DNA of 20,000 nt. Source: an uncultured virus (IMG/VR IMGVR_UViG_3300028033_000029) (taxonomy: Duplodnaviria > Heunggongvirae > Uroviricota > Caudoviricetes). Every line of letters begins with the position of its first letter. Position 1 is the first letter of the stretch. Shown one piece after another: positions 7,473-20,000 of the stretch. The position numbers and the translations under genes are program-made. The notes beneath the pieces are model-generated. The model searched no databases, was not told the DNA's origin, and saw nothing but the letters and a program-made list of their open reading frames with translations. Where the stretch lies: IMG/VR virus record IMGVR_UViG_3300028033_000029; one strand, 5' to 3'.

Positions 7473-8495
7473 GTGAGGCATTTGCAAGAGATTGTAAGGC
7501 TAATCAAAGAAAGGTTGTTTAATAATCCTATTTTGATTAAAGGTATTTTAGAAAAATTAGGTTTTCATAAAATAAGAGAATTAAATAACGAAATAAGAGC
7601 AGCCTTACCTGATGGTAATAATTGGACAAGTACAGTAGTGAAACTTAATGAAAATCTTTCAACATATATATATTCAAGAAATGACTATGATGGGACAGAT
7701 ATTATATCATTAGTGCAATACATAAAAAAAATGAATTTTCGTCAAGCTATTGAATGGTTATGTTTAGAATTAGGTATAGATTACAATAATAATGATATTG
7801 AAATAAAGCTTGAAAGTAGTTCATACAAGATTTTTAAAATGTTTGAAAAGAGGGGAGGTGAAAATATTATCCATGAAATATTAGATGAAGAAATATTAAA
7901 ACAATATGAAGATAGGATTACACAAGAATGGCTTGATGAAGGGATTTCTGAAGAAACACAGTGTAAGTTTGAGGTTAAATTTGACTCTAAAACTAATAGA
8001 ATAGTGTTCCCTATTAGAGATGAAAACGGCAATCTAATTAATATTAAAGGAAGAACTTGTTTCAGTAATTATAAGGAATTAGGTATACCTAAGTATATTT
8101 ATTATTATAAGTTGGGTACTAATGATATATTGTATGGATTGTATCAAAACAGAAATAGTATTCAAGATATATTAATAATTGTAGAAGGCGAAAAATCCGT
8201 TATGAAATTTGATAGTTTAGGAATCAACAATGTAGTAGCAGTTGGTACGCATACTATTAACAAATACCAATTAGATAAAATTTTGGCTTTAAAATGCAGA
8301 GAGGTAGTTATTGCATTTGATAAGGATGTACAATACAAAGAATTAATTGAAGAAGCTAAAAAGCTTAATAGGTACGTTAACGTAAGTATTATATATGATA
8401 CTAATAATTATTTAAATGAAAAAGATGCGCCAATCGATCAAGGAATTTTAGTATGGGAAGAATTATTTGAGAGGAGAGTTAGAATTGGAAATTAA
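7473..8495 (+). CDS. dnaG: DnaG-like DNA primase (TOPRIM)
   Basis: 'DIISLVQ..NFRQAIEWL', 'RIVFPIRDENGNLINIKGR', 'PKY', 'LYGL', 'IVEGEKS', 'IAFDKD'; adjacent to the helicase. Confidence 0.9.
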   Translation: MRHLQEIVRLIKERLFNNPILIKGILEKLGFHKIRELNNEIRAALPDGNNWTSTVVKLNENLSTYIYSRNDYDGTDIISLVQYIKKMNFRQAIEWLCLELGIDYNNNDIEIKLESSSYKIFKMFEKRGGENIIHEILDEEILKQYEDRITQEWLDEGISEETQCKFEVKFDSKTNRIVFPIRDENGNLINIKGRTCFSNYKELGIPKYIYYYKLGTNDILYGLYQNRNSIQDILIIVEGEKSVMKFDSLGINNVVAVGTHTINKYQLDKILALKCREVVIAFDKDVQYKELIEEAKKLNRYVNVSIIYDTNNYLNEKDAPIDQGILVWEELFERRVRIGN

Positions 8496-9252
8496 AGAAA
8501 AAATAAAACAAATGTGTTGGAGTTATTCGAGATTAAATGCATATCATACTTGTCCTTATATGTTTTATCTTCAATACATAAAAGAATATCAAGGAATCCC
8601 ATCGGCATTTGGCTTATTTGGAAGTTTTGTGCATTCAATTTTAGAAAAATATTTTAAAGGTGAATTACTTGTTTTTGAATTAAGCGAATATTACAAAGAA
8701 AACTTTGATAAAGAAGTATATGTAAATTTTCCTCCTAATGCTTATGTAGATTTACGGCAAAAATACTTTGAAGCTGGATTAGATTTCTTCAATAATTTCA
8801 GTGGGTATGAAGATTTAGAAATTCTTGAGGTAGAACCAGAGGTTAACTTTAAAATAGATAAATATTGTATGCGTGGGTTTATTGATTTATTAGCAAAAGA
8901 CCGAAACAGCAACTTGATAATTATTGACCATAAAACAAGAGCGGGATTTAAATCAAAAAAGGAATTAGATGAATATTTAAGACAATTGTATTTGTATAGC
9001 ATACCAATTGTTGAAAAATATAAAGAATATCCTAAAGAACTAATTCTTAACATGATAAAAGAGAAAAGAGATATAAAAGTAGAATACAATACTAATAAAT
9101 TAGAAGAAGCTAAAATGTGGGTAATTCATACAATTGATGCAATAAAAAATGATAATGAATTTAAAGCTAAACCCTCTCAGTTTTTCTGCGATTACATATG
9201 TAGTGTCAGAGAGTATTGTTCTAATAGCAATAAGTATCTTGGTATATCTTAG
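8485..9252 (+). CDS. PD-(D/E)XK nuclease, AddB/Cas4-like with a probable Fe-S cluster
   Basis: 'WSYSRL..YHTCP', 'GSFVHSILE', 'E...RGFIDL...IIDHKT', 'QLYLY' and C-terminal 'CDYICSVREYC'. Likely TTG start at 8485 behind GAGGAG. Confidence 0.88.
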   Translation: MEIKEKIKQMCWSYSRLNAYHTCPYMFYLQYIKEYQGIPSAFGLFGSFVHSILEKYFKGELLVFELSEYYKENFDKEVYVNFPPNAYVDLRQKYFEAGLDFFNNFSGYEDLEILEVEPEVNFKIDKYCMRGFIDLLAKDRNSNLIIIDHKTRAGFKSKKELDEYLRQLYLYSIPIVEKYKEYPKELILNMIKEKRDIKVEYNTNKLEEAKMWVIHTIDAIKNDNEFKAKPSQFFCDYICSVREYCSNSNKYLGIS

Positions 9253-13081: not shown

Positions 13082-13669
13082 TTGAGTAGTACTAATAGAA
13101 GCCGAGCAAGAGATACTCATATTTCCGATTATTATGTTACCTCAATAGAAGAAATTGAAAAATTTTTAGAAAAATTTTTAAAGATAGAGAACATAGAGAT
13201 AAGTTACAGAGAGAATATGAAGGTGTTAGACCCAGCAGCAGGGGGAGATAAAATACATAAAATGAGCTATCCAGAAGCTTTAAAAAAGTTTGGGTTTGAA
13301 AACATAGACACTATAGATATTAGACAAGATTCGCTTGCACAATATAAACAGGATTACTTGATGACTAATTGTAAAAACAAATATGATATGATAATAACTA
13401 ATCCTCCTTTCAGTCTTGCTCTAAATTTTATACAAAAAGCATTAGATGATGTAAAAGATGATGGATGGGTAATAATGTTACTACGTTTGAACTTTTTCGG
13501 TGGTAAACAACGCTTTGGGTTCTGGCAACATAATATGCCTAAGTATTGTTTTGTACATCATAAACGTATGAGTTTCACAGATGATGGCAAGACAGATTCT
13601 ATTGAATATTGTCATATGGTGTGGCAAAAAGGATATAAATCTGAGTTCACGAAGTTGATGGTAATATAA
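13082..13669 (+). CDS. Small amino-DNA methyltransferase (probably N6-adenine)
   Basis: SAM-binding 'LDPAAGG' precedes catalytic 'IITNPPF'; also 'DYYVT' and 'MLLRLNF'. Confidence 0.85.
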   Translation: MSSTNRSRARDTHISDYYVTSIEEIEKFLEKFLKIENIEISYRENMKVLDPAAGGDKIHKMSYPEALKKFGFENIDTIDIRQDSLAQYKQDYLMTNCKNKYDMIITNPPFSLALNFIQKALDDVKDDGWVIMLLRLNFFGGKQRFGFWQHNMPKYCFVHHKRMSFTDDGKTDSIEYCHMVWQKGYKSEFTKLMVI

Positions 13670-13673
13670 TAAT

Positions 13674-13705
13674 GATTTAAATAAAATTGGTCTTTTATTA
13701 AAATC
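13674..13705. repeat. Intergenic palindrome AATAAAA-N6-TTTTATT, perfect core with extended arms
   Basis: GATTTAAATAAAA ttggtc TTTTATTAAAATC; 13-bp arms with one mismatch, core 13680-13699. Confidence 0.65.
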
Positions 13706-13736
13706 ATACATTATAATAATAAGGAGACGTGATTAT

Positions 13737-14450
13737 ATGTTAGAATTGAATAAGATTTACAATATGGATTGTTTAGAAGGTCTTGATTTATTAGATAATG
13801 AGTCAGTTGACCTCATAGTAACAAGTCCTCCTTATTACAATGCCAACAAAAAATACCAGCGTGGTAGTGGAATTCATTACACAATGGATATTGGTGAACC
13901 GCTTTATGTTGTTGAAGATATATTTCAAAAAAGTTATCGAATTTTAAAAAATGATGGTTTTTTGTGTATTAATTTAGGATTTTCATATGGTGAAACAGGT
14001 GTATTAAGACCATTTTATATTTTACAGCGAGCCATAAAATTAAAGTGGTTTGTTATTGATACAATTATTTGGGTTAAAACAAATCCAATTCCTATTAAAA
14101 ATAGATTAACTAATGCATTTGAGTATATTTTTGTTTTAGCCAAACATCCACATACTGAGTATCCTTCTAAACCTACTTATGTAAAAAATGTTATCGAGAC
14201 TTCTATATCTAAACCAAAAGATGCTTATTTTCACAATGCAGTTTTTCCTTTAGAAATCCCTAAATTTTGTATTGAAATTTTTACTAAAAAAGGTGATATT
14301 GTTTTAGATCCTTTTATGGGTAGTGGAACAACAGCAATAGCAGCTTTAGAGTTAGGGAGAAAATTTATAGGATTCGAGATTAATCCTGAGTATGTTGAAT
14401 TAGCTAATCAAAGAATTGAAAATTATTTGAACGCACAGGAGAGAGGATAG
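13737..14450 (+). CDS. Beta-class DNA methyltransferase (N6_N4_Mtase; SPPY suggests N4-cytosine)
   Basis: 'DLIVTSPPY', 'HNAVFP', 'VLDPFMGSGTT', 'GFEINPEY'. Confidence 0.92.
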   Translation: MLELNKIYNMDCLEGLDLLDNESVDLIVTSPPYYNANKKYQRGSGIHYTMDIGEPLYVVEDIFQKSYRILKNDGFLCINLGFSYGETGVLRPFYILQRAIKLKWFVIDTIIWVKTNPIPIKNRLTNAFEYIFVLAKHPHTEYPSKPTYVKNVIETSISKPKDAYFHNAVFPLEIPKFCIEIFTKKGDIVLDPFMGSGTTAIAALELGRKFIGFEINPEYVELANQRIENYLNAQERG

Positions 14451-14451
14451 A

Positions 14452-14985
14452 ATGATAATTGAGAGAAAGTGGGCAATGCCCAATAAAAATACTTTTTTGA
14501 TTAGGCCAATTATGGAATTGTTAAAAGAAGAAGTATAAAATGGGATTTGGATTGATCCATTCGCTAATGATAATACAATAAAAAAGATTATACAGAATTC
14601 CAGTGTAACTCTCATTACTAATGATTTAAATCCCGAATATAATACAGATTACCACTTAGATGCTCTTGATTTTTTGAGACAATTTACTGACAATTCTATT
14701 GATGGAGTGTTATATGACCCACCGTATTCAGTTAGACAAGTAGCTGAATCTTATAAACATTTTGGGTATGAAGTAACTTCTGAAATTACAAGAAGTGATT
14801 GGTGGACTAAACACAAAAAAGAAATAGCGAGGATTACTAAAATAGGAGGAAAGGTTATTAGTTTCGGGTGGAATAGTATGGGTATAGGCAAGAACAATGG
14901 TTTTGAAATACAAAGAATATTATTAGTACCGCATGGTGGTATACATAATGATACTATTGTAGTGGTGGAAAAGAAAATTCAATAA
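14452..14985 (+). pseudogene. Small phage adenine-methyltransferase-like gene interrupted by an in-frame TAA at codon 29
   Basis: ATG 14452 (SD GAGAGGA) gives MIIERKWAMPNKNTFLIRPIMELLKEEV* and continues in the same frame NGIWIDPFAN...TNDLNP...DALDFL...LYDPPYS. TAA is at 14536-14538. Confidence 0.8.
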
Positions 14986-15000
14986 AATCTAACTTTTATT
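14981..15000. repeat. Intergenic palindrome AATAAAA-N6-TTTTATT, perfect copy
   Basis: AATAAAA tctaac TTTTATT; the left arm contains the upstream stop codon. Confidence 0.65.
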
Positions 15001-15037
15001 TAAAACAACAGATAAAAATAATAACGAGGTGATTATA

Positions 15038-15844
15038 TTGTCTAATTTCAAGTCTTGGTTTCCTAATATATATTTTGAAACAGAAAAGGGTGTAATAATA
15101 AATGATGATTGCTTTAACGTATTTAAATACATACCAGATAAAAGTATAGATACGATTTTGGCTGATTTGCCTTATGGAATAACTGAATGTAAATGGGATA
15201 GTGTGTTACCTTTAGATAAGCTTTGGGAAGAGTATAGAAGAATCATTAAAGATAATGGAGCAATATTATTGTTTGGAACAGAACCTTTTAGTACTTTTTT
15301 GAGGATACAAGCAATTGATTTGTATAAATACGATTGGATATGGCAAAAAACAGTTCCTACTGGATTTCAACACGCCAAAAATATGCCATTAAGAGACTAT
15401 GAAATTATTAGTGTTTTTTCAAAAGCACCTATAGGGCATAAATCTTTACTTGGAGACAAGAGGATGAAATATAATCCACAAGGTTTACAAGATTGTTTTG
15501 AGATTGAAAACAGCAAAACAAAATTTAAAAATATAATCAGCGAACGCCCCTCACATAAGGATATTATTATAAGACAAAAATGTAATTATCCTAAAATGAT
15601 TATAAAGTTTCCTAATCAAAGTGGCGAGTGTGCAAACAACAAACGACTACATCCTACCCAAAAACCAGTAGCATTATTAGAATATTTGATTAAAACATAT
15701 ACTAATGAAGGTGATTTGGTTTTAGACAATACTGCAGGAGTATGTTCAACAGGAGTAGCAGCTGAAAATACTAACAGATATTGGATTTGCATTGAGAAAG
15801 AATTAGAATATTGCCAAAAAGCAGTAACGAGATTTAGTAAATAA
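15038..15844 (+). CDS. Beta-class DNA methyltransferase (DLPY type, probably N6-adenine)
   Basis: 'DTILADLPYG', 'YDWIWQK', 'HPTQKPVALLEYLIKTYT', and a variant SAM motif 'VLDNTAGVCST'. Probable TTG start at 15038 behind GAGGTG. Confidence 0.88.
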   Translation: MSNFKSWFPNIYFETEKGVIINDDCFNVFKYIPDKSIDTILADLPYGITECKWDSVLPLDKLWEEYRRIIKDNGAILLFGTEPFSTFLRIQAIDLYKYDWIWQKTVPTGFQHAKNMPLRDYEIISVFSKAPIGHKSLLGDKRMKYNPQGLQDCFEIENSKTKFKNIISERPSHKDIIIRQKCNYPKMIIKFPNQSGECANNKRLHPTQKPVALLEYLIKTYTNEGDLVLDNTAGVCSTGVAAENTNRYWICIEKELEYCQKAVTRFSK

Positions 15845-15891
15845 AAATAGTCTTATTGAATACATAAAAATAATAATTAGGAGGTGATACG

Positions 15892-16086
15892 ATAATAAAA
15901 AATTTTGTTATACTCTTGTTAGCTATGTTAATGATGATTATAATTGGTATAGTATTTCTTATTGTTATAGATGTGATATATGATACGCTTATCAGGCGTG
16001 GCGTAGATAAATATATTGTAAGTATTATTTGCGCTGTGATTTATATTTTAGTTACGACAATTTTTGTATGGTATATATTCACGTAA
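15892..16086 (+). CDS. Small two-TM membrane protein (64 aa, probable ATA start)
   Basis: SD AGGAGGTG, then ATA ATA AAA AAT...; aligns without gaps to the next gene. Confidence 0.6.
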   Translation: MIKNFVILLLAMLMMIIIGIVFLIVIDVIYDTLIRRGVDKYIVSIICAVIYILVTTIFVWYIFT

Positions 16087-16102
16087 TAAGGAGAGTGGTA
16101 TT

Positions 16103-16306
16103 ATGATGGATAATTTTTTAATATTCTTCTTTATTATATTGTTTATTACTACCATTTCATTAGTTTTTGCGTTAATAGCAAGCGCAACACAGTATGTGCT
16201 TATTACACATGGTGTAATTCCAATAATTGCAGATATTATCTCTTATTTAATAATGGCTTTGCTTATATCGGCTTTTATATGGTTTATTATTAAAAAACAA
16301 GATTAA
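16103..16306 (+). CDS. Small two-TM membrane protein (67 aa), paralog of the upstream gene
   Basis: SD AAGGAG, ATG 16103 within ORF 16064..16306; two hydrophobic helices. Confidence 0.7.
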   Translation: MMDNFLIFFFIILFITTISLVFALIASATQYVLITHGVIPIIADIISYLIMALLISAFIWFIIKKQD

Positions 16307-16354
16307 AATAAAACTGGAGTTTTAGTGATATATAAATAATTCACAGGGGGAATA

Positions 16355-17446
16355 TTGATGTATAAGTATCCGCTTGGATTAACACAACAGTTTAGGTTTT
16401 GTGGAAATCCATTTAGAATAGATACATACAAAGGTTGTGATTTTGGATGTTTGTATTGTTATGCAAATACCAGAAAGGGTAATTATAAAAATACATTTGA
16501 TATAGCGGATTTTAATGTGATAGAAAGTATGTTTAAAAAAGCGTTTGAATCTGATAGAGAATATTCTAATATTAATATTGAATTATTGAGGCATAAAGTT
16601 CCCCTACATTTAGGGGGGATGTCTGACCCTTTTCAAAGAAGAGAATGGAAATACGGACTTACTTATAAATTATTAGAGTTAAGTAATAAATATAAATATC
16701 CTATAATTATTTCTACTAAAATTGCTAATTTACCTCAAAAATATTGGGATATATTAAATCCAGAAATTCATGCTTTTCAAATTAGCTTAATGGGATACAA
16801 TGAGAATTTTGTTAGAAAATATGAAATAAATACCCCAACACCCCAAGAAAGAATTGAATTCATAAAATTGTTAAAATCAAAAGGATTTTGGGTAGGACTA
16901 AGAATACAACCTTTAATTGATATTGATGAAGCTATATTATTAATCAAAAATGTTGAGCAATACAATATTAACTATATCACTATTGAACATCTGAAAATTC
17001 CAGTTGATAATAAATCAACAAGGAAACTATTTGATGATGTTTTTAAAAAATATAATTTTTATAAACCTAAACAAGGTAGAGCATATGAAATACCAAGAAA
17101 TATAAAGATAGAAAATATAAATAAAATTAAATCAATTACAAATATACCAATAGGTGTTGGCGATAATGATTTACATGAGCTTACTGATACAAGAAACTGT
17201 TGTGGAATTGACACAATTAATAAAAACTTTAATAATTGGCTTAAATATAATTATACTTATTTTGCTACAGCTAAAGGGACAGAAAATAAAAAAAATATAT
17301 GGTATCCACAAAACAATTGTAGGTTTGTTTTGAATAGTGCTGACAGAGGAAGTAAAGATTTTAAAACAGTAAAGGATTATGTAGATTATTATTGTGAAAC
17401 TTTTCAATATAGTGTTTTTAAAAGCAACCAAAATAATTCTCAATAA
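16355..17446 (+). CDS. Radical SAM protein (spore photoproduct lyase-like, COG1533-type)
   Basis: CxxxCxxC 'DTYKGCDFGCLYCYA', 'GGMSDPFQ', 'ISTK', 'PTPQERIE', 'LRIQP'. Confidence 0.88.
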   Translation: MMYKYPLGLTQQFRFCGNPFRIDTYKGCDFGCLYCYANTRKGNYKNTFDIADFNVIESMFKKAFESDREYSNINIELLRHKVPLHLGGMSDPFQRREWKYGLTYKLLELSNKYKYPIIISTKIANLPQKYWDILNPEIHAFQISLMGYNENFVRKYEINTPTPQERIEFIKLLKSKGFWVGLRIQPLIDIDEAILLIKNVEQYNINYITIEHLKIPVDNKSTRKLFDDVFKKYNFYKPKQGRAYEIPRNIKIENINKIKSITNIPIGVGDNDLHELTDTRNCCGIDTINKNFNNWLKYNYTYFATAKGTENKKNIWYPQNNCRFVLNSADRGSKDFKTVKDYVDYYCETFQYSVFKSNQNNSQ

Positions 17447-17838: not shown

Positions 17839-18237
17839 ATGAAGCCCTTTACAAAAAGATATAAAAATGATAGCATTGAAAAATATCCAATTATTAGTAA
17901 AAAGACAGGTAAAAAATATTTTGTAACGATACAACCATATTATTTAGACGAAAAATATTACAAGGAAGGTTGTATAGTGCGACTGTATGATGGTAAATTT
18001 AGATTGGGGATATTCCCTAATAAGCAATTAATAGAAATCCATTGCAAAAACGAAAATGGTATAATAAAAGAAGAATATCCTGACAAGGATATGCATAGTA
18101 ATTTCCCTTATAATTTGATTGGGTTGGCAAAATATGCAGTTGCTAGTTATGAGATAAACTGCGAAAAAGAGAAAAAGGTTATAGAAACATTTGAAAAAGA
18201 TTTTGAGGAGTTTGAAAAATGGGATGGAGTAGTGTGA
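17839..18237 (+). CDS. Hypothetical phage protein (132 aa)
   Basis: SD AAGGAGGT plus ATG. Confidence 0.7.
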   Translation: MKPFTKRYKNDSIEKYPIISKKTGKKYFVTIQPYYLDEKYYKEGCIVRLYDGKFRLGIFPNKQLIEIHCKNENGIIKEEYPDKDMHSNFPYNLIGLAKYAVASYEINCEKEKKVIETFEKDFEEFEKWDGVV

Positions 18238-18283: not shown

Positions 18284-18311
18284 TTGACAAAGAAAAAATA
18301 CGTGGTATAAT
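18284..18311 (+). promoter_or_regulatory. Consensus sigma-A promoter with extended -10, upstream of cas12f
   Basis: TTGACA (18284-18289), 16 nt, TATAAT (18306-18311) with TGn and an A-rich UP element. Confidence 0.85.
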
Positions 18312-18403
18312 ATAAAATGTGAGGTGAACGAGATGGATACAAGTTAATAAAATTTATTTTTCAGTGCACGTTATAATAATAATGATAATGAGGAGACGAT
18401 AAA

Positions 18404-19777
18404 ATGGCGAAGCGAAAAAGAGATAAAAATGCTGTAGTTAAAACATTAAAACTTGAATTAGTAGATGTTTTAAATTATGAACCACCGCCTAAAAAAGATG
18501 GTGAAGAGTATACTGAAAAAGAAAAGAAACGGATGTTTAGAAAAGAACTTAGAAACTTACAAAAAAGGATAGCCCAAACTAGTAATTATATTATGCGTGA
18601 ATATTTTTTGTGGGAACTTAAAAGAATTGAGGCATCTAAAAATGGGATTATACTCAATGAAAAAGAAGAATTAGGCACCACACTACAAAACAAAGGATAT
18701 AGAATTGCAACTGAAACTTTAAAAGGGTTAAACACAAGGAATATATCGGCTTTAACATCTTGGTTGTGGGAAAATTGGCGAAAGTATAAAAAGAAAGTAT
18801 TTAATGGAAGCATGAGTTTACCTTCTTATGGCTTAAAGCAACCCATACATATCATAAAAGAGAATTATAAAATAATGCCATATAAAAATAATAATGAGTA
18901 TATAGTAGAAATAACATTTCTAAGTCCTTCTGAAGGAAGAAATCGTACTTTAAAATTTGTTACTGTAAGGCAGGACAAGTATCGCCAAAATATCATTAAT
19001 AAGATATTAAGTGGTGAGTATAGGCAAGGGTCAGCACAACTTATTTTAGAAAATAATCCTAATAAAAATTTAAGCGCACAAAAAATATTTTTCCATTTCA
19101 ATTATGAGTTTGTACCTCAAGTAAAAGAAGAGTTATCTGATAAAATTTTGGGACTTGATTTAGGACTTAAAAATGTGGTTGTTATGCAAGTGTACGACCC
19201 ACAACAAGGGAAATTTGAAGATTTAGATGAAAATGAGTGTATGATAGATGGTACAGAATTAGTTATTTACAAAAACAAAATAGAAGCTTTAAGAAAAAAA
19301 GCTAATAAAGCCACTAAATGGAAAGGTCAGGGCAACACAGGACATGGTAGAAAAAAAAGAACTAAAAATGCCTTAAATATAGGACACAAAATTAAAAATT
19401 CTAAGAGCACTTATAATTATAAACTAGCTAAATATATAATTGATTTTGCATTAAAGTATCAATGTAAATATATTAAAATGGAAAAATTAACAAGACATGG
19501 GTTTAGTGATACATTACTTCAAAATTGGACATTTAATGATTTGCAAAACAAGATAAAAAATAAAGCTAAAGAAAATGGAATTGAGGTTTTATTTGTTGAA
19601 CCGCAGTATACTTCTCAACAATGCAGCAAATGTGGATATATAGATAAGGAAAACAGGGAAACAAGGGATAATTTTAAATGTAAGAAGTGCGGTTTTGAAA
19701 TAGATGCTGATATAAATGCAGCACGAAATATAGCACTTTCGGAAAAAATTATTAAAGAAGATGATGATGATGAATAA
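18404..19777 (+). CDS. cas12f: Type V-F CRISPR effector, Cas12f1-like (TnpB superfamily), 457 aa, RuvC intact
   Basis: RuvC-I 'LGLDLG', RuvC-II 'IKMEKL', RuvC-III 'DADINAARNIA'; Zn finger 'YTSQQCSKCG...CKKCG'. Blocks 'GSMSLPSY', 'ILSGEY', 'GHGRKKR' and 'LQNWTFNDLQNKI' match AsCas12f1 as recalled. No tnpA nearby; tracr-like element, leader and repeat follow. Confidence 0.85.
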   Translation: MAKRKRDKNAVVKTLKLELVDVLNYEPPPKKDGEEYTEKEKKRMFRKELRNLQKRIAQTSNYIMREYFLWELKRIEASKNGIILNEKEELGTTLQNKGYRIATETLKGLNTRNISALTSWLWENWRKYKKKVFNGSMSLPSYGLKQPIHIIKENYKIMPYKNNNEYIVEITFLSPSEGRNRTLKFVTVRQDKYRQNIINKILSGEYRQGSAQLILENNPNKNLSAQKIFFHFNYEFVPQVKEELSDKILGLDLGLKNVVVMQVYDPQQGKFEDLDENECMIDGTELVIYKNKIEALRKKANKATKWKGQGNTGHGRKKRTKNALNIGHKIKNSKSTYNYKLAKYIIDFALKYQCKYIKMEKLTRHGFSDTLLQNWTFNDLQNKIKNKAKENGIEVLFVEPQYTSQQCSKCGYIDKENRETRDNFKCKKCGFEIDADINAARNIALSEKIIKEDDDDE

Positions 19778-19800
19778 ATAGTACCTTGAAAATAAAATAC

Positions 19801-19863
19801 GGGGTGTTTCCACACCCCAAGCCGAGTTCGCCATTCTCGGCAATCCCCTATATTAAATAAAAC
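19801..19863 (+). ncRNA. Putative tracrRNA, very compact
   Basis: Hairpin 1 GGGGTGT/ACACCCC contains TTCCAC (19808-19813), complementary to repeat GTGGAA. Hairpin 2 is GCCGAG-TTCGCCATT-CTCGGC. Anti-repeat TCCCCTATAT (19844-19853) is complementary to repeat ATATAGGGGA, and terminal AAAC to repeat GTTT. Confidence 0.75.
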
Positions 19864-19870
19864 AAAATGG

Positions 19871-19969
19871 CTGTCGTCGATCCCCTATAGTTTTTGCATT
19901 ATTAAACATCGACGACAAAATAAAGAAAACAAAACCTATACATATTGGGAAATAAGGGTTTTAAAACGG
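19871..19969 (+). promoter_or_regulatory. CRISPR leader
   Basis: Perfect inverted repeat TGTCGTCGAT (19872-19881) / ATCGACGACA (19908-19917), then an AT-rich tract with AAAACC...GGTTTT, ending ...ACGG at the repeat. Resembles clostridial CRISPR leaders as recalled. Confidence 0.65.
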
Positions 19970-19999
19970 GTTTAGCTCTAACATATAGGGGAGTGGAAC
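19970..19999 (+). CRISPR. First CRISPR repeat (30 nt, GTTTAGCTCTAACATATAGGGGAGTGGAAC); array presumably continues beyond the window
   Basis: GTTT...GAAC termini, 30-nt length, position after a leader and complementarity to the upstream anti-repeat. Only one copy is visible. Confidence 0.7.
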
Positions 20000-20000
20000 G

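Follow-up and report, generated by a model that had tools for sequence, protein, structure and literature searches.

A phage-borne type V-F1 (Cas12f) CRISPR locus with a predicted short tracrRNA and an inverted leader of the type I-B kind

The 20,000-nt stretch of DNA from an uncultured tailed virus that was analysed here (the window) carries near its end a gene which could encode either a transposon-associated TnpB protein or the effector of a miniature CRISPR system carried by a phage. A preliminary description, made from the sequence alone, had proposed the latter, an active Cas12f system serving inter-phage competition or host targeting. The gene (18404..19777, plus strand) encodes an AsCas12f1-like protein of 457 amino acids in which, as had been described, the RuvC triad (D252/E360/D436) is complete and the CCCC zinc finger intact. 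AsCas12f1 is the closest solved relative by sequence (E 1e-61) and also the closest fold match of the predicted structure (pLDDT 76). The alignment pairs D252, E360, D436 and R418 with D225, E324, D401 and R383 of AsCas12f1, residues whose loss is reported to abolish activity (10.1101/2023.07.03.547593), and all four are invariant in the seven members of the clade. Among the PAM-reading residues given for AsCas12f1 in the same source (H72, Y76, S92 and K96), the second and third have kept equivalents in the window protein (Y99 and S115), while H72 and K96 are replaced by Q95 and S119.

The database names point the other way. No NCBIfam Cas12f model passes its cut-off for the window protein (the Cas12f2 model scores 101.8 against 450), NCBIfam and PHROGs name it TnpB or transposase, and one database record calls it IS605 OrfB. 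On this reading the protein would be an IS200/IS605 TnpB with its omegaRNA, lying beside a repeat by chance. In a quick tree of 74 rows, which contains no named reference enzyme and holds five TnpB rows on long branches, the phage clade (SH-aLRT 99) is nested with the array-linked loci L005-L007 (support 100) away from the TnpB rows, and an array was called nearby in 43 of the 51 loci of the support-100 group, two upstream calls being doubtful. A Pfam scan of the 26 window ORFs found neither tnpA nor cas1 or cas2 families, in agreement with the preliminary description, the cas12f site is identical across sister phages, and the guides are array spacers. With multi-spacer arrays that have matching targets, the fixed position and the tree position, the TnpB reading can be regarded as refuted; the true IS-type TnpB of a sister phage (L131:5526-6725) is a separate, distant gene adjoining an integrase. 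The size of the effector (within 400-500 amino acids), its domains and nearest relative, the intact catalytic residues, the adjacent array with unique spacers, the tree position among array-linked Cas12f and the predicted tracrRNA described below, whose anti-repeat, stem 1/pseudoknot and stem 2 core are supported by co-variation, all agree, and judged from sequence the locus belongs to type V-F1 by every feature examined.

The cas12f gene is mosaic. Between the window and L001 genes the identity is 77-86% in the first 1050 nt and 100% in the remainder; the genes of L001, L003 and L083, compared among themselves, give the opposite pattern. This suggests that the 5' and 3' parts of the gene are alleles exchanged independently of each other, with the breakpoint at about codon 340-350. 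No close protein relative was found in the 40 genomes searched. Downstream of a more distant Cas12f relative with 37% identity and catalytic motifs present (L004:172-2121, similar in L052) come a promoter, a short structured segment and a gene with sigma-70 region 2. The arrangement recalls dCas12f-sigma systems, which have reportedly been described in a published study, and may be a chance neighbourhood.

The 30-nt repeat at 19970..19999, recognised earlier from its sequence, is the first of a real array, of which the window holds one further base, the first of spacer 1 (20000..20000). Two sequencing runs, X1 (possibly the one the window came from) and X2 (from another study), contain the window DNA almost exactly, and their contigs continue from the repeat through a 40-nt spacer beginning at base 20000 into a second repeat; X2 also shows a second spacer of 37 nt. 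These contigs come from mixed populations, so spacer order and array size are not fixed by them. Extension of the contig thus supplied the second repeat and the unique spacers that had been expected. Layout and site are the same in four sister loci, whose proteins show 78-83% identity, and in three of them the array is complete, with three spacers in L001 and two each in L003 and L083; L084 ends after the first repeat. The sister loci have no spacers in common. Three repeat types occur across the loci, and the exact window repeat was not found in viral contigs. The trailer of L083 (L083:5831-5867) holds a relic of the window repeat type (24/25) together with an older fragment, and would document that repeats were replaced starting at the leader side.

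All seven spacers of the sister loci match other viral records (36/36, 37/39, 29/36, 36/36, 29/31, 36/36 and 35/37), as does one of the two window-run spacers, the 37-nt one, which matches the terminase gene of G485 at 37/37. A 15-nt piece of the 40-nt spacer had no match in 235 loci. Each of the eight protospacers is preceded by 5'-TYA (TTA in seven, TCA in one; chance about 3e-11), bearing out the T-rich 5' motif anticipated in the preliminary description, and this motif reports acquisition rather than the preference of the nuclease itself. Four of the targets lie in a group of tailed phages (G482-G484) within tape measure, tail and replication genes, and a relative of this group resides in the bacterial genome G077. 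The other four lie in G485, a provirus of 11 kb that encodes capsid, portal, terminase and primase-like proteins and, from a record rated 55% complete, is possibly a capsid-forming satellite. This provirus (L234) has a relative in G059; a 150-bp repetitive non-coding region and one structural protein are common to it and a sister phage (L129:2991-3142). The spacers target both strands, and structural and replication genes alike. In 40 genomes of the host's class and five further sources only chance-level matches were obtained, apart from one prophage-like match (29/37) in G077, and a search against GenBank phages and plasmids gave nothing convincing. Inter-phage targeting is thus borne out by all eight matched spacers, whereas host targeting found no chromosomal target in the genomes searched. 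That the system is carried by a phage also holds; that it is active we infer from spacer turnover.

The structured segment that follows the gene, already noted as bearing an anti-repeat, folds into two hairpins (z = -5.7), and none of 200 shuffles folded as well. Stem 1 (19801..19818, plus strand as all these elements) has 6 bp and a loop at 19807-19812 which pairs over 5 bp with the 3' end of the repeat, forming pseudoknot 1; one double change occurs here in L001/L003, and three more in an orphan copy of the scaffold support the pseudoknot. The shortened stem 2 (19821..19841) consists of 6 bp and a 9-nt loop. It is followed by the anti-repeat (19844..19852), which forms 9/9 pairs with positions 15-23 of the repeat and varies in step with the repeat type, the cognate duplex having -15.5 compared to -8.9 kcal/mol for non-cognate pairs. 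A 3' tail (19866..19871) could form 6 bp with the stem-2 loop, a predicted pseudoknot 2 for which the orphan copy, as the one informative sequence, supplies two double changes. The predicted tracrRNA would thus have a core of 52 nt (19801-19852), or 71 nt when the tail is included. A second TCCCCTATA within the leader was considered as anti-repeat and rejected, as it does not co-vary with the repeat. A search of Rfam gave nothing at gathering level, and no further copies turned up when the scaffold model was run on 65 sources and on 40 genomes.

Stem 1, its pseudoknot and the base of stem 2 are described as the conserved core of Cas12f and TnpB guide RNAs (PMC12255294), and AsCas12f1 (PDB 7wju, 8j12, 8dzj) has the base of stem 2 and a stem 1 with a pseudoknot loop of 6 nt in common with the window scaffold, as well as the catalytic residues, the Y76/S92 equivalents and the T-rich 5' motif. 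The window protein is only about 31% identical to AsCas12f1, is phage-borne and has an extra N-terminal segment; its repeat is 30 nt long and I-B-like, and the motif is TYA rather than NTTR. The scaffold of AsCas12f1 is 171 nt long and its stems 3 and 4 are required for activity, whereas in the window the anti-repeat directly follows stem 2 and leaves no room for these stems, and a second pseudoknot is predicted. In all four phage loci the stem-2 insert has 9 nt; a call was obtained for 27 of 31 array-linked relatives, and in these it spans 15-50 nt, with a median of 40. The guide RNAs of Al3Cas12f, OsCas12f and RhCas12f, which likewise vary naturally in scaffold size, are given as 129-156 nt, with 134 nt for a minimal version (PMC13186708). 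A fused guide for the window system would be about 75-95 nt.

A scaffold so reduced might no longer support catalysis, and the complex might then bind and repress its targets without cutting them. The equivalents of stems 3 and 4 and the distal part of stem 2 are missing, and such removals abolished the activity of AsCas12f1 or reduced that of RhCas12f. OsCas12f tolerates the same deletions, an enzyme of this kind being able to do without stem 4 and the distal part of stem 2 (PMC13186708), the residues essential in AsCas12f1 are invariant throughout the clade, and the spacers are not confined to one strand or gene class. We therefore regard repression without cutting as very unlikely and DNA cleavage as the probable action of the complex.

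One sister phage carries a second, orphan copy of the scaffold, on the minus strand at G002:92591-92684 (L133:4566-4687). The site is 46 kb away from the cas12f locus and has neither cas genes nor an array; it is flanked by an exonuclease-like gene and by a 251-aa gene that precedes the packaging module. Three bases of the stem-1 loop are changed in this copy, and all three pairs are restored by a half repeat located 54 nt past the anti-repeat. The stem-2 loop and tail carry two further double changes, giving five compensatory pseudoknot changes in total, and partners swapped between the main and orphan scaffolds mispair. The pair-restoring 11-mer occurs once in 202 kb. Although a single sequence, the orphan copy is the best evidence for both pseudoknots, and it can be read as a natural single guide of 113 nt whose guide part overlaps the ribosome site of the gene that follows. 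The phage pieces and the target viruses contained no target for this guide, and its ten-base seed had 11 matches compared to 9 control matches in five genomes. An HU-like gene lies 2.7 kb from the orphan scaffold (L133:7425-7715).

Three guesses may be offered on the role of the orphan copy. A site or decoy that binds Cas12f in cis and so tunes the late genes or the pool of effector is a plausible guess with close to even chances, a relic of an older locus is a somewhat weaker one, and a fixed guide to a target not among the sequences searched seems rather doubtful. The tracr-L, scaRNA and crlRNA molecules and the solitary repeat units of phages are described as repeat-derived RNAs with fixed guides that serve in regulation or inhibit effectors (PMC10120712), and they serve as a model for the orphan copy. 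In contrast to these RNAs, the orphan copy comprises the complete tracr scaffold, in which the pseudoknots have been re-coded, lies far from its locus and was without target in our search. It may be a type V regulatory RNA of a new kind.

A consensus sigma-A promoter with extended -10 (18284..18311, plus strand, 12/12 match) precedes cas12f and is conserved in L001. Promoter-like sites are not above chance in the window as a whole (10 found, 12.2 expected), and among the window sites listed none lies on the plus strand after 19515. The promoter probably drives cas12f, tracrRNA and array as a single transcript. The preliminary description had assigned the locus a promoter of its own, and the consensus stands; as 21 promoters of this type occur in the pieces of the sister genome G002, it is a generic early-type promoter and not specific to CRISPR. 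The neighbouring window genes include phage replication and methylase functions, and a PD-(D/E)XK nuclease (8467-9252) matches Cas4 only below the cut-off. A variable slot just upstream of cas12f holds a 132-aa ORF of no known family (17839-18237), which is absent from the sister phages and from runs X4 and X6, and a cluster of DNA methyltransferase genes with a radical SAM gene (13082-17446) varies between sister phages. In L001 (9122-13369) the ribonucleotide reductase and probable terminase genes are split by homing-endonuclease-like inserts. Identification of the gene after the array as thyX was rejected for want of HMM support, and no tRNA genes were found in 12 loci. The sister record G002 (97.8 kb, with terminal repeats) carries integrases, a repressor, MrpR and HU, which indicates a temperate phage. 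No cas1 was found in G002, although its absence is not proven as the record is rated 57% complete.

The leader offers an indication of the origin of the spacers. The palindrome noted earlier (19873..19916) is of the kind found in Firmicutes type I-B leaders, with one match and none in 200 shuffles, and the adjoining leader-proximal segment (19917..19969) ends in an I-B-like ACGG junction, the host consensus ending in AcGG. In bacterial genomes the motif gave 36 matches; with 59 of 132 candidate ORFs scanned, 17 matches were adjacent to cas1b. The palindromic sequence agrees with an I-B leader; its orientation and distance do not. In the 29 of 36 host leaders with a callable repeat the motif has the opposite orientation and lies 97-161 nt from the repeat, whereas in the phages it is inverted relative to the array and 53-55 nt away (53 nt in the window), and none of the 29 falls on the phage side. 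Among viral contigs the short inverted leader occurs only in the three sister records, and in four sets of bacterial genomes (1/34, 0/40, 0/401 and 1/401) both positives are G034. There, at L251 (G034:C44, 5645-13500), two arrays with the phage-type leader accompany csf1, csf2, csf3, a RecD-like helicase and cas6, each of which scores below its curated cut-off; a VirD4-like gene is nearby. No cas1 is present on this contig, and the L251 spacers had no match among the sequences searched. L251 would be a type IV-D-like mobile system, and the inverted and closer palindrome appears, outside the phages and in the genomes searched, only at this cas1-less locus. We infer that the phage and the type IV element both borrow a host I-B integrase by means of a common compact leader. 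It may be speculated that the motif could keep its place in space if one DNA bend were lost and the motif itself turned round.

The spacers of the bacteria were also compared with the phage. Among 765 spacers from leader-bearing bacterial loci, with shuffled controls giving at least 10 mismatches, five of 27 in L097 (G064) and one of 57 in L096 (Caldicoprobacter) match the phage, all behind TTA, and none of the 39 spacers of the cas-adjacent array of G064 does. Since L096 also has a matching spacer, the host is not pinned to one species. TTA is reported as a working I-B PAM in C. thermocellum (PMC6926293), and the 35-39-nt lengths of the phage spacers and the TTA motif equal those of the host arrays. 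G064 encodes one Cas1b with Cas2 and Cas4 and holds anti-phage spacers with TTA, so it is probably a host type I-B module of this kind that supplies the phage spacers. Separately, an array of the candidate host beside csm6 (L097/L253) has repeat positions 15-23 identical to those of the window repeat, and the phage anti-repeat could thus pair with host crRNAs.

Alternatively, the spacers could be obtained by recombination with the arrays of other elements, or through an adaptation module that is not the I-B module of the host, such as that of a co-resident mobile element. The leader geometry resembles the mobile type IV locus and not the host arrays, the three repeat types and the L083 relic testify to array exchange between phages, and cas12f itself is mosaic. 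Yet the type IV locus also lacks cas1 on its contig, and both TTA and the spacer lengths are those of the host arrays, which makes this alternative unlikely and favours supply by the host module.

Taken together, we consider it very likely that the locus is an interference-only type V-F1 system of a phage, with a short tracrRNA, spacers borrowed from the host type I-B system and an anti-virus role. In this reading a temperate phage of thermophilic Firmicutes would use the system against co-infecting viruses. The early-type promoter would give rise to cas12f, the very short tracrRNA and the array, presumably on one transcript; the tracrRNA would pair with the 3' half of the repeat by the 9-bp anti-repeat and the stem-1 pseudoknot, as co-variation shows, and probably fold back through the second pseudoknot, for which one sequence is informative. 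Cas12f, to judge from its intact residues and homology, would cut DNA beside a T-rich motif. Host type I-B Cas4-Cas1-Cas2, recruited by the compacted inverted leader, would insert the spacers and thereby fix TTA/TCA, as suggested by the leader, the repeat length, the spacer length and the shared PAM. Against this reading stand a leader geometry unlike that of all 29 callable host leaders, a repeat only 20/30 identical to the host I-B consensus, the difference in two of four PAM residues and the absence of stems 3 and 4, needed by AsCas12f1.

Phage type V systems without adaptation genes that target rival elements are known (10.64898/2026.04.20.719267; PMC11656645). A comparable case is Cas12r of the Thermus Lalka phages, also a type V effector without adaptation genes in temperate phages of a thermophile, for which host adaptation was proposed from PAM and repeat and whose spacers are directed against integrated elements, maybe satellites. 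Cas12r is, as described there, tracrRNA-free, has an ARG PAM and is linked to type I-E (10.64898/2026.04.20.719267), whereas the window system is tracr-dependent and I-B-linked. Type IV-D (RecD) and IV-A3 plasmid systems are likewise mobile and cas1-less, with repeats like those of co-occurring type I systems; IV-D repeats resemble I-B, and IV-A3 shares leader motifs with I-E, which has been read as borrowed adaptation. Their effector is of Class 1, and the parts of that source available describe no inverted, shortened I-B leader (PMC7038947). In the openly available literature that was searched we found neither a natural Cas12f scaffold as short as this one nor an orphan single guide of Cas12f nor an I-B leader in inverted form. 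The preliminary description had not noticed that the scaffold is reduced, that the leader is of host I-B origin and inverted, or that an orphan scaffold exists. The predicted 52-71-nt tracrRNA with its second pseudoknot, the orphan copy in one sister genome and the inverted, closer palindrome appear to be new.

The size and stability of guide RNAs limit Cas12f editors, and a natural scaffold predicted to have about half the characterised size provides a ready test case. Coming from a likely thermophile phage whose acquisition motif can already be read, it could make a useful compact editor. The phage, the candidate host and the rival viruses form a full triangle for testing borrowed adaptation. 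The inverted leader also bears on leader recognition in bacteria without IHF, which has been raised as a question (PMC13748974), HU being a shown cofactor according to another report (PMC13769266). A further-reaching reading, in which a minimal double-pseudoknot scaffold of about 70 nt, an orthogonal orphan regulator or decoy and an inverted leader docking the I-B integrase are combined, is tentative and on balance unlikely. Were it true, the inverted leader would be a common design of cas1-less mobile systems, working through a different DNA fold.
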